A stretch of DNA of 64,000 nt, from positions 1,024,001-1,088,000 of the forward strand of contig CAXXDV010000001.1 in assembly GCA_963674745.2 (NCBI GenBank), read 5' to 3'. Under the pieces are notes generated by a model. It saw only the letters and a list, made by a program, of their open reading frames with translations. It was not told where the DNA came from and made no database searches. Made by a program: the position numbers and the translations under genes. Origin of the DNA: Desulfosudaceae bacterium. GTDB taxonomy: Bacteria; Desulfobacterota; Desulfobacteria; Desulfobacterales; Desulfosudaceae. Shown one piece after another: positions 18,907 to 21,740 of this stretch; the stretch's first letter is position 1; every line of letters starts with the position of its first letter.

Positions 18907-19098
18907 GAAAAGAATCCTTGTCCCCGAAGCTGATTTTTCGTTGTCGGGTTTGATTAAGTGGCTAAAAGAACACAGCAACATGATCATACACAATTTATGA
19001 TGTGTTGACAATATGTTAAAAGGTATTAAGTTGTAAATATAAGAAAAACAGTAGGAAATCATTATCGGACCGAAACCGACCTTTAGGAGAAACGAATT

Positions 19099-19269
19099 AT
19101 GAAAGAATTGCTGATTATCTTCGCCATAGTGGGCGCGTATCTGTTATTGCAGCTCGTCATTCTGCCCAAAATGGGTATATCCACCTGAATGCGGTCTGCC
19201 TGTCAGTTGACAGATCAGAAAAACGAAACAAAAAAAGACACGAAACCGGCAGAAACGGTTAGAGAGTAA
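19099..19269 (+). CDS. Putative small membrane selenoprotein (in-frame TGA = Sec30), first gene of the cop operon
   Basis: AGGAGA RBS at 19085-19090; MKELLIIFAIVGAYLLLQLVILPKMGIST-U-MRSACQLTDQKNETKKDTKPAETVRE; TAA 5 nt before the copZ ATG; SECIS-like hairpin 19195-19219. Confidence 0.7.
19195..19219 (+). promoter_or_regulatory. Candidate bacterial SECIS hairpin
   Basis: UCUG-C-CUGUC-[AGUU]-GACAG-AU-CAGA; apical loop starts at +17 after the UGA at 19186-19188 and has G at its second position. Confidence 0.55.
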
Positions 19270-19274
19270 AAAAT

Positions 19275-19478
19275 ATGGAAACACAAACCTTCACCATACC
19301 CAATATATCCTGCGGGCATTGCGTCATGACCATTAAAAACGAGCTTCTGGAACTTGACGGCGTCAAACAGGTCGAAGGCGATGCTGATACCAAAGCCATT
19401 ACCGTTAAGTGGGATGCGCCGGTTGATCGACAGAAAATTCTCGATCTGCTGCGGGAAATCAATTACCCGGCCGACTAA
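19275..19478 (+). CDS. copZ: Copper chaperone (HMA domain)
   Basis: 67 aa, ISCGHC metal-binding motif. Confidence 0.9.
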   Translation: METQTFTIPNISCGHCVMTIKNELLELDGVKQVEGDADTKAITVKWDAPVDRQKILDLLREINYPAD

Positions 19479-19499
19479 TGAATTGTAGGGACGGCCCCC

Positions 19500-21740
19500 A
19501 TGAGCGACAAGAATGTTACCCTGGCTATTACCGGTATGACCTGCGCCAACTGCGCCGCCAATATCGAGCGGGCGCTCAACAAAAAAACAGCCGGCGTGGT
19601 CGATGCCGCGGTCAATTTTGCCACGGAACGGGTCAATGTGACCTATGACCCGGAGGTTCTGTCCGAATCCGGCATTGTTGCGGCCATTGAAAAAGCCGGT
19701 TACGGCGCCCTGCCGATTGACACCGCCAATCCGGCCGATGACAGTGAAGCCACGGCCCGGCGGACCGAAATCAGGAAACAAACCCGAAAATTTCTGATCG
19801 GTGCGGCCTTTGCCCTGCCCCTGTTTGTCCTCAGCATGGGCCGGGATTTCGGATTGCTGGGCGCCTGGAGCCAGGCCGCCTGGGTCAACTGGCTGTTTTT
19901 CGTTCTGGCCACACCGGTCCAGTTTTACACCGGCCGGGATTTTTATTCCGGCGGCTGGAACAGCCTGAGAAACAAAAGCGCCAACATGGATGTGCTGGTG
20001 GCCATGGGCTCGTCCGTGGCATACGGTTATTCCCTGGCAGTGATGCTGTTTCCCTTTCTCGGCGACCATGTCTATTTTGAGACCTCGGCGGTGATTATCA
20101 CCCTGATCAAGCTGGGTAAACTCCTGGAAGCCCGGACCAAAGGCCGCACCGGCAGCGCCATCCGCAAACTGGCCGGTTTGCGCCCGAATACCGCCACTGT
20201 TATCAAAAACGATAAAGAAACACCCATTCCCCTGTCCGAAGTGATGGCCGGCGATGTCGTCATCGTTCGCCCCGGTGAACGGATTCCGGTTGACGGCACG
20301 ATTACCCGCGGGAATTCGGCTGTTGACGAGTCCATGCTGACCGGAGAGCCGGTACCGGTGGACAAGGGGCCGGGGGACCGGATCGTTGGCGGCACTATCA
20401 ACGGCCAGGGATTATTGACTTTCAAAGCCGAGGCCGTGGGCGCCGACACGGTCTTGTCTCAGATTATCCGCATGGTGCAGGAAGCCCAGGGCGGCAAAGC
20501 CCCGATTCAGGCCCTGGCCGACCGCGTGGCCGCGGTCTTTGTACCCGGCGTAATAGTGATCGCGCTGGTGACCTTTCTTACCTGGTGGTTGCTCTCCGGT
20601 GATCCCGTTACTGCCATGATCCGGCTGGTGGCCGTGCTGGTAATCGCCTGTCCCTGCGCCCTGGGGCTGGCCACGCCTACGGCCATAATGGCCGGCACGG
20701 GAAAAGCGGCTGAAAACGGTGTCCTGTTCCGCAGGGGCGAAAGCATTGACGCCTTTTCCGGGATCGACACCATCGTGTTTGACAAAACCGGCACCATTAC
20801 CGAAGGCCGCCCCTCGGTGGCCGATATATTTTTTGACAGCGACAACTGCGACAGTCCTGAAGCCCTGTTGACCATGGCTGCCGCAGCGGAAAAAGGATCA
20901 GAGCACCCCATCGGCCGGGCGGTGGTTGCCGAAGCCGAAGGTCGTGATCTGGTATTGACCGATCCGGATAATTTTGAGGCGGTCAGCGGCATGGGTGTCC
21001 TGGCCGATGTTTCCAGCAGGAAGGTAATGGCCGGCCGGTTGTCCTGGTTTACGGACGAGGGTCACGATGTTTCGTCTCTGGCGGAAACCGCCGCCGGATT
21101 CCAGTCCCAGGGAAAAACCATTCTGGCCGTTTTTGTGGACGACAAGGCCTGGGGGTTGATCAGCCTGGCCGACAAGATCAAACCCGAATCCGCGAAAGTT
21201 GTCGGCTCACTCCGAAATAGCGGCCTGGAGGTGATCATGCTTACCGGTGACAACCGCCAAACTGCTGAGAATATAGCAAAAGAAGCTGGCATCGATCAGG
21301 TTGTGGCCGATGTCCGGCCGGATGAAAAAAACCAGGCCATCAAGCGACTGCAGGAAGGCGGGGCGAAGGTGGCCATGGTCGGTGACGGCATTAATGATGC
21401 CCCGGCCCTGGCCCTGGCGGATGTGGGGGTGGCGATCGGTACCGGTACTGACGTGGCCATCGAAGCGGCCGACATTATCCTGTCCGGCGCCAGCCTGGAA
21501 GGTGTCCTGCGGGCCATGAACATCAGCCGGAGTACCATGATTACCATCCGGCAGAACCTGTTCTGGGCCTTCTGCTACAACCTGCTGCTGATTCCGGTGG
21601 CCGCGGGTATCCTCTACCCGCTAACCATAATGCCGGATTTCCTGCGTCACCTCCACCCTATTCTGGCCGCCCTGGCCATGGCTATGAGCAGTATTTCGGT
21701 GGTTGGCAACAGCCTGCTGCTTTACAAGAAAAAAAGCTGA
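19500..21740 (+). CDS. copA: Cu(I)-exporting P1B-1 ATPase
   Basis: GMTCANC metal-binding domain, [33 protein letters not shown] and MAMSS P1B-1 signatures. Confidence 0.95.

Follow-up and report, generated by a model that had tools for sequence, protein, structure and literature searches.

The closest described systems are the bacterial genes that carry a selenocysteine insertion sequence (SECIS) inside the open reading frame (ORF), with fdhF of E. coli as the paradigm. In the bacterial SECIS (bSECIS) model, as given in the accessible text of a review of May 2026 (PMC13188914), the apical loop has 3-9 nt with a G in the first two loop positions, the spacing from UGA to the loop is 16-37 nt, and the minimum free energy (MFE) is -7.5 kcal/mol or lower. 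Here we analyze a small gene in a stretch of 64,000 nucleotides from a Desulfosudaceae bacterium (GenBank assembly GCA_963674745.2, contig CAXXDV010000001.1, positions 1,024,001 to 1,088,000), which is referred to below as the window and whose position 1 is its first letter. Positions 19099-19269 very probably constitute one gene for a 56-residue single-pass membrane selenoprotein, the UGA codon 30 of which would be decoded by SelB via a hairpin at 19195-19219, and which would represent a large uncatalogued family. This gene is like the known genes with a SECIS in the reading frame in that the hairpin loop lies 16 nt past the UGA, the loop has a G at position 2, Cys homologues exist and the full selenocysteine (Sec, U) machinery is present. 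It is unlike them in encoding a single-pass membrane microprotein that has a U-x4-C motif and no match in NCBIfam release 20.

The small gene (19099..19269, plus strand; 56 codons and a TAA) was defined by translation and by alignment of its family. A ribosome-binding site, AGGAGA, can be read directly at 19085..19090 on the same strand, 8 nt ahead of the ATG at 19099, and sites of the GGAG type precede the start in most orthologues. The TAA stop, also read directly, occupies 19267..19269, and codon 30 is a TGA at 19186..19188 that is assigned to selenocysteine on the basis of comparative conservation. With this TGA translated as U the product is MKELLIIFAIVGAYLLLQLVILPKMGISTUMRSACQLTDQKNETKKDTKPAETVRE. 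An earlier note on this DNA had proposed such a readthrough product, and the coordinates it gave for the ribosome-binding site, the ATG, the TGA, the TAA and the ATG of the following copZ gene all proved correct on re-reading.

Three sets of relatives were compared. A six-frame search (E <= 1e-6) covering 61 genomes, namely that of the window and those of its 60 nearest relatives, produced 47 matches in 46 genomes, the window's included; each match has exactly one internal TGA and an alignment that continues past it. When 401 genomes sampled from the window's phylum were searched with a profile, 175 matched, again with an internal TGA in every row among the matches listed. From this phylum 60 loci were taken, and removal of three duplicated genomes left 57. 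Finally, a pattern scan across phyla, with one genome per species, confirmed at least 491 loci, of which 80 were kept; the motif could be placed in 71 of them. Codon 30 is TGA in all 57 phylum loci and in 65 of the 71 cross-phylum loci, the other six having a Cys codon at this position. The 57 and the 65 loci together make up a set of 122 Sec-type loci, and neither TAA nor TAG occurs at codon 30 in any of these 122.

The sequence behind the TGA has the properties of a coding region. All 57 phylum loci share a common build of 29 codons, the TGA, and then (M/L/V)-(R/K/..)-x-(A/S)-C-Q, so that residues 31-35 are conserved at the protein level. Frame 0 past the TGA stays open for at least 17 codons in 57/57 loci (median 25), whereas frame +1 is shut within 13 codons in 47/57 and frame +2 in 28/57. 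Conservation of the protein is accompanied by variation of the codons: the basic residue at codon +2 is encoded by CGG, CGC, CGA, CGT, AGG, AGA, AAA or AAG, and Cys35 (codon +5) by TGT in 39 loci and TGC in 18. In 25 of the 57 genes TGA serves as the true terminator as well, and the host organisms therefore read TGA as a stop unless its context differs. The alternative offered in the earlier note, that translation stops at the TGA and restarts at the adjacent ATG, fails as a general reading: codon +1 is CTG, CTC or GTT in seven of the 57 loci and GTG in one, so that a restart at ATG cannot be the rule. The readthrough proposal of that note, by comparison, is supported by the absence of TAA and TAG at codon 30, by the conserved residues 31-35 and by the Sec machinery of the genome described below.

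The hairpin proposed in the earlier note, with its G at loop position 2, was reproduced by folding. It spans 19195..19219 on the plus strand and has the structure UCUG-C-CUGUC-[AGUU]-GACAG-AU-CAGA. The lower stem pairs UCUG at 19195-19198 with CAGA at 19216-19219, the upper stem pairs CUGUC at 19200-19204 with GACAG at 19209-19213, and the AGUU loop occupies 19205-19208, beginning 16 nt after the TGA. This hairpin is the minimum-energy structure of the 57 nt counted from the TGA (-9.3 kcal/mol) and is also the centroid of a wider fold; with its four-nucleotide loop, G at position 2, 16-nt spacing and energy of -9.3 kcal/mol it satisfies all four constraints of the bSECIS model. Comparative data point in the same direction. 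In the alignment of the 57 phylum sequences 82% of the cells of the seven-pair helix are paired, and sliding the partners lowers this to 64% or less. Double-changed cells number 36, against 12.0 +/- 2.7 in shuffles, and 0/500 shuffles attain 36, although these counts are inflated by the relatedness of the 57 sequences. The pattern is specific all the same: at pair 33-40, 37 sequences have U-A and 18 have C-G. The exchange of TGT/ACN for TGC/GCN, in which a synonymous change of the Cys codon accompanies a change from Thr to Ala, occurs not only in the window's taxonomic family (L008; loci are designated L) but also in L020 and L021, which represent two further families of its order, and in the distant group of L041-L054.

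Across the whole Sec-type set, 118 of 122 sequences have a contiguous hairpin with 5 bp or more, which begins 8-22 nt from the U of UGA, and the mean stem is 6.3 bp as against 2.7 bp in shuffles. There are 47 distinct apical stem sequences among these hairpins, and the commonest loops are GUC (23), AGGU (22), AGUU (17) and GGUC (11). A search of the region against Rfam gave a chance snoRNA match alone (E = 2.3). Taken together, the position, the constraints and the covariation strongly support the view that the hairpin acts as a SECIS element. A comparable hairpin follows the one in-frame TGA of selD in the window's genome (G000:C1:326061-326981, outside the window), which is the known selenoprotein form of SelD.

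Relatives in the protein databases reveal how such genes have been annotated. Searches at E <= 0.001 yielded 764 proteins and 968 cluster representatives, and 262 sequences were examined. No fewer than 188 of the 262 stop exactly before position 30, as expected from the prediction in the earlier note that gene callers would cut the product to 29 residues. Position 30 is W in 37, which may reflect gene callers translating TGA as Trp, and Cys in 28. The latter, together with the six Cys loci found in genomes, are the homologues with Cys at position 30 that the earlier note had suggested looking for. Their Cys aligns with U30, and they keep P23, G26, T29, C30 and C35 but not Q36-V37-T38. Since Q-V-T corresponds to the loop and 3' arm of the hairpin and is not kept in the Cys forms, its conservation in the Sec forms can be read as a constraint on the RNA, which leaves (U/C)-x4-C to be read as the motif of the protein. 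The six Cys loci show no enrichment of hairpins, with a mean stem of 4.0 bp against 3.9 bp in shuffles. One of the six, from a metagenome-assembled genome (MAG) labelled Chloroflexota (L078:3992-4171), retains the hairpin CUGCUC-GGUU-GAGCAG, of a kind that Sec forms in Obscuribacterales typically have; this suggests either a recent change from Sec to Cys or a mis-binned contig.

The distribution of the Sec machinery agrees with these assignments. The window's genome carries SelA, SelB, SelD and a tRNA-Sec with the anticodon tca. There is also a second, weaker match to the SelB wing (E = 5.3e-6) in a 678-residue frame at G000:C3:1795409-1795540, outside the window; the main SelB is on C1. In other phyla SelA was found in 5/5 Sec-form genomes tested and in 1/5 Cys-form genomes, the completeness of which is not established; the other four Cys-form genomes gave no match. 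Co-occurrence with SelA within the phylum was tried as a test and set aside as uninformative, SelA being nearly universal there (373/401 genomes). Eight phylum genomes have the small gene and no SelA match, and SelB was found in 5/5 of the most complete of these. Overall, Sec forms outnumber Cys forms 65 to 6 among the 71 cross-phylum loci, a preference that runs opposite to the usual pattern as quoted in the accessible text of PMC13188914.

The predicted protein consists of a transmembrane helix (residues 2-24), the segment G26-x-x-T29-U30-x4-C35 and a tail rich in K, E and D. In the family alignment M1, Q18, L22, P23, G26, T29, U30, C35 and Q36 are invariant and W14 is nearly so. AlphaFold2 run on this alignment gave a helix over residues 2-24, with a predicted local distance difference test score (pLDDT) of ~91 over residues 1-20, and a non-helical remainder in which confidence falls. 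For 103 family members the net charge is -0.33 before the helix and +1.28 over the 15 residues from P23, and their tails, of 16-62 residues, have a high content of K, E, D, S and P. By the positive-inside rule, the positive charge on the C-terminal flank of the helix would put the U-x4-C loop and the tail on the cytoplasmic face. The charge distribution thus suggests that the short N-terminus points outward and that the loop lies just beyond the helix end. The set of soft ligands proposed in the earlier note, M-x4-U-M-x3-C, survives in part: U30, C35 and, mostly, M31 are conserved, whereas position 25 varies among Met (25), Leu (27) and Phe (5) in the 57 phylum loci.

The family is widespread. 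Beyond the 175 genomes of the window's phylum it extends to at least ten other phyla, the record titles of the loci naming Acidobacteriota, Planctomycetota, Melainabacteria/Obscuribacterales, 'Deltaproteobacteria' of the Myxococcota type, Chloroflexota, Spirochaetes, KSB1, Zixiibacteriota, Dormiibacterota and Bacteroidota as well as Desulfobacterales. The window protein matched no model of Pfam or of NCBIfam release 20 (June 2026) at E <= 10, and 18 natural Cys forms gave chance matches only against both collections at E <= 1. No like family was found among the 119 selenoprotein families of Table 1 in PMC13188914, the words 'membrane' and 'transmembrane' are absent from the accessible part of the BSepDB paper, and text searches of the literature for the motif and for small membrane selenoproteins returned nothing relevant. 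Within these sources the claim that such a protein is not described has therefore held. The ESM Atlas contains one unnamed cluster at 0.88, which is a lead only. The decoding mechanism is ordinary, and, as far as searched, novelty lies in the family, in its breadth, in how strongly it prefers Sec and in its membrane location.

In the window the small gene is followed on the plus strand by two copper genes, both named in the earlier note and both borne out by matches to Pfam or NCBIfam. The first, at 19275..19478, encodes a copZ-like copper chaperone with an HMA domain and a CxxC motif (Pfam HMA, E = 4.2e-14); its ATG at 19275 lies 5 nt past the stop of the small gene, and its matches to the NCBIfam copper-ion-binding and CopZ models fall under their cut-offs. 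The second, copA at 19500..21740, encodes a copper-translocating P1B-type ATPase (Pfam E1-E2_ATPase, Hydrolase and HMA) whose TIGR01511 score of 628 bits exceeds the cut-off of 397. No terminator-like site was seen between the small gene and copZ. The operon structure indicates that the small gene is likely to be co-transcribed with copZ-copA in the window's genome and taxonomic family, and that it is probably translationally coupled to them.

Upstream, a consensus scan of the plus strand for promoters found no site. A possible promoter noticed by eye, TTAAAA-N16-TATAAG, is kept in L003, a locus of the same genus. The divergent intergenic region ahead of the small gene contains an imperfect inverted repeat, TTGACA-ATA-TGTTAA (19005-19019), which is identical letter for letter in L003 and may be an operator or part of a promoter. 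Divergent from the small gene, on the minus strand at 14986-18906, are genes for a pyruvate-formate-lyase-like glycyl-radical enzyme and an aldehyde dehydrogenase; the longest ORF of the former reaches 19062, with the likely start at an ATG at 18906 that has AAGGA ahead of it.

The copper context is a property of a minority of loci. Flanks of ~1.5 kb per side were examined for the phylum loci and of up to 4 kb per side for the cross-phylum loci, whose neighbours were called mechanically. The copZ-copA pair lies downstream in seven of the 57 phylum loci, window included, all of them in the window's taxonomic family and distributed over five genera; in these seven intact loci the distance to copZ ranges from -20 to +13 nt. 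The gene copA is directly upstream in L028 and L030, which belong to two other taxonomic families. A further locus of the window's taxonomic family, L008, has an intact small gene followed by three CopA-like fragments (residues 3-27, 159-200 and 464-558) and no copZ (L008:1423-1990), as if the copper pump had decayed while the microprotein gene next to it was preserved. Neither copA nor copZ is present within ~1.5 kb in the remaining 47/57 loci. The linkage to copZ/copA stands in the window's taxonomic family, with other neighbours elsewhere. The copper role suggested in the earlier note is only partly supported, and a copper-specific reading holds for the window's lineage alone.

Other phylum loci have neighbours of several kinds. 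A gene for an extracytoplasmic function (ECF) sigma factor is directly downstream in 10/57; in six of these an ORF for a zf-HC2 anti-sigma factor was called next to it, and Hsp33 is next in three. A 4Fe-4S dicluster protein and a ~155-residue protein of no Pfam or NCBIfam family lie upstream in seven, MobB is nearby in six and a rhodanese in two. In several loci of the Desulfobacterales type (L019, L021, L022, L023, L025, L037, L040, L080, L083, L098 and L101) the dicluster protein and the ~155-residue protein are followed by the small gene, which often stands ahead of an ECF sigma/anti-sigma pair.

Across phyla, the neighbours obtained by clustering at the 71 loci are fusions of CoA-disulfide reductase and rhodanese (CoADR-RHD; 14), TauE/SafE exporters (11), RND permeases (8), ArsR/SmtB regulators (8), DUF302 proteins (6), cation P-type ATPases (6) and thioredoxin (5); no Cu ATPase or HMA protein is among the top 14 neighbour clusters. 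Obscuribacterales and Acidobacteriota repeatedly show the order ArsR< CoADR-RHD> TauE> CoADR-RHD> [small gene]>, of which shorter forms occur in Planctomycetota and in a MAG labelled Chloroflexota. This operon (L085, L086, L092, L096, L111, L139, L149, L153, L077 and L091) looks like a unit for the detoxification of persulfide or reactive sulfur with the microprotein as its last gene. More generally, a same-strand ORF ends within 150 nt upstream of the small gene in 41/71 loci, and in 36/71 the first ORF called downstream of it lies on the other strand; the small gene is therefore often the last in its unit.

The common denominator of these contexts is thiophilic chemistry at the inner membrane, involving Cu(I), sulfane sulfur or disulfides, often beside an exporter, and for this reason we propose a membrane-tethered selenolate-thiol capture site. 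The pair U30/C35, together with Met31, would capture thiophilic species at the surface of the inner membrane and pass them on to cytoplasmic or membrane partners. In the window's lineage the site would have been recruited to the export of Cu(I), which it would share with CopZ and CopA. In other lineages sulfane sulfur would take the place of Cu(I), handled with the CoA-disulfide-reductase/rhodanese enzymes and TauE exporters. As a mechanism this capture and relay is tentative, while the combined explanation, of a selenoprotein that relays thiophiles, is the one we favor as reasonably likely. Prediction of a complex between the window's CopA and a natural Cys-form relative (P0001) returned no answer (score 0.00), which bears neither way.

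It is also conceivable, though fairly unlikely, that the protein is a plug-in selenium module, a one-helix microprotein that docks onto varied exporters of the inner membrane, which would be CopA in the window and, in other settings, RND pumps, TauE or further P-type ATPases. The helix, with its invariant P23 and G26 and near-invariant W14, would dock, and the selenolate-thiol pair would be held at the cytoplasmic entry of the pump. The pair would there trap thiophiles such as Cu(I) or polysulfide arriving from the membrane surface, and would either supply them to the pump or gate it. We know of no selenocysteine-bearing accessory subunit of a transporter described to date.

A number of observations weigh against the favored explanation. 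With regard to the hairpin, the single-sequence fold of 19180-19250 has a z of -0.12, 80 of 200 shuffles folding equally well; RNAalifold returned no consensus structure for the 57 aligned sequences; and in a simple scan 4/122 Sec forms have no contiguous 5-bp hairpin. With regard to codon 30, the residue is G, S or R in six relatives from the databases (P0034, P0124, P0147, P0159, P0172 and P0221). All of these are one base from TGA, and they could be real losses, sequencing errors or the result of callers' other genetic codes. The topology follows a rule of thumb only. Finally, the neighbourhoods are heterogeneous and many loci have no sulfur or metal gene inside the flanks examined, so that the functional reading rests on a minority of loci.

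The alternative that survives best accepts the selenoprotein and assigns it to catalytic redox chemistry or redox sensing. U30 and C35 would cycle via a selenenylsulfide, for instance to reduce peroxides or disulfides of the membrane and be re-reduced by thioredoxin or CoADR, or to signal to a zinc-finger anti-sigma factor, and the adjacency to copZ-copA would be a lineage-specific accident of synteny. Thioredoxin adjoins in 5/71 cross-phylum loci, pyridine-nucleotide disulfide reductases are upstream in 14/71, and hemerythrin, ODP, prismane and YgbA_NO genes adjoin in some loci; the ECF sigma genes (10/57), zf-HC2 anti-sigma ORFs (6) and Hsp33 (3) of the phylum loci would fit as well. A strong preference for Sec over Cys, here 65 to 6, is moreover usual for redox-active sites, as is generally known and as the accessible text of PMC13188914 indicates. 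Such an accident would have to account, however, for a copZ-copA linkage kept across five genera with gaps of -20 to +13 nt, for copA directly upstream in two other taxonomic families and for the recurrence of RND pumps and P-type ATPases as neighbours, and the U-x4-C spacing is not among the Sec motifs of the table in PMC13188914. We consider this alternative somewhat unlikely.

That the whole family is dedicated to Cu or Ag, as a membrane-tethered Sec chaperone, a sensor or an accessory of CopA, was the proposal of the earlier note and is quite improbable. It would explain a gene placed ahead of copZ-copA in 7/57 loci, after copA in two and beside copA remnants in one; U, M31 and C35 are soft ligands, and metal transport is represented among catalogued selenoproteins by the cation-transporting ATPase with UxxC and by the Cu/Zn efflux transporter SO_0444. 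It conflicts with the 47/57 phylum loci in which copA and copZ are absent within ~1.5 kb, with the top 14 neighbour clusters of the 71 cross-phylum loci, which contain neither a Cu ATPase nor an HMA protein, and with L008, where copA has decayed while the small gene is intact.

A short ORF that directly precedes an operon, and whose stop codon is 5 nt away from the start codon that follows, could also be a selenocysteine-sensing leader, in which the fate of the ribosome at the UGA and SECIS would report the supply of Sec-tRNA and set the expression of copZ-copA, the peptide itself being functionless. This is very improbable, given that the next ORF is on the opposite strand in 36/71 loci and a same-strand ORF ends within 150 nt upstream in 41/71, that conservation of the peptide extends to both sides of the UGA in at least ten phyla, and that Cys forms exist without the hairpin. 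Scarcely credible, lastly, is an ordinary stop at codon 30 that yields a 29-residue membrane peptide followed by a conserved restart ORF or non-coding RNA element: 188/262 database entries do end there and TGA is also a true terminator in 25/57 genes, yet a free choice of stop codons would not be expected to give TGA in 122/122 Sec-type loci, codon +1 is not a start codon in 7/57, the frame behind the TGA is open and conserved as protein, and Cys codons replace the TGA in homologues, mostly in genomes with no SelA match, so that this reading is already contradicted by the comparative data.

If the favored explanation, a membrane selenoprotein that relays thiophiles, is correct, one of the most widespread bacterial selenoproteins has so far been invisible, because its first 29 codons fall under ORF cut-offs and gene callers halt at the UGA. 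It would add a family to the selenoproteome inventories of Acidobacteriota, Planctomycetota, Melainabacteria, Myxococcota and the sulfate reducers. It would also place reactive selenium at the membrane surface, which is not described for the families catalogued in the accessible part of PMC13188914. With 56 residues the protein can be synthesised chemically, and it would offer a test system for the question why Sec is preferred over Cys. For copper biology it would provide a testable candidate for an extra component of CopZ-CopA export in anaerobes.

Among known proteins, the nearest resemblance in sequence is to the C-terminal P-L-G-I-N-T-C-K-K of YgaP-like proteins (PF11127, formerly DUF2892). 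In the YgaP-like transmembrane domain, as in the small protein, the stretch (P/K)-L-G-I-(S/N)-T-C comes after the end of a helix, along with basic residues. YgaP occurs with rhodanese and ArsR-type genes, and the small gene was likewise observed beside such genes in some loci. Homology to PF11127 was considered and is unsupported: hhalign aligned nine columns at 18% probability and there was no Pfam match. Unlike PF11127, the family has one helix and not two, has no C-P-x-Y, and has its partner Cys downstream and not upstream.

Placement of Sec in or beside heavy-metal export is shared with catalogued metal-handling selenoproteins, namely the cation-transporting ATPase of the E1-E2 type (UxxC), SO_0444 (UxC), NF045683, a MerT/CopZ fusion-like selenoprotein, and NF041115, a UxxU metal-binding protein. 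In these, however, Sec is inside a known metal-binding domain or transporter, whereas the window protein is a free-standing microprotein with no HMA fold. An identity as a copper chaperone of the CopZ/Atx1 type was not supported, as the small protein has no HMA match and its model is one helix with a disordered tail.

Single-helix accessories of exporters form the remaining comparison. AcrZ acts with AcrB, KdpF with KdpFABC, and sarcolipin and phospholamban with SERCA; to our knowledge none of these four accessories has a reactive Sec or Cys head. Set beside them by description only, the small selenoprotein is similar in size and architecture, and its gene adjoins those of RND pumps, P-type ATPases and TauE exporters.

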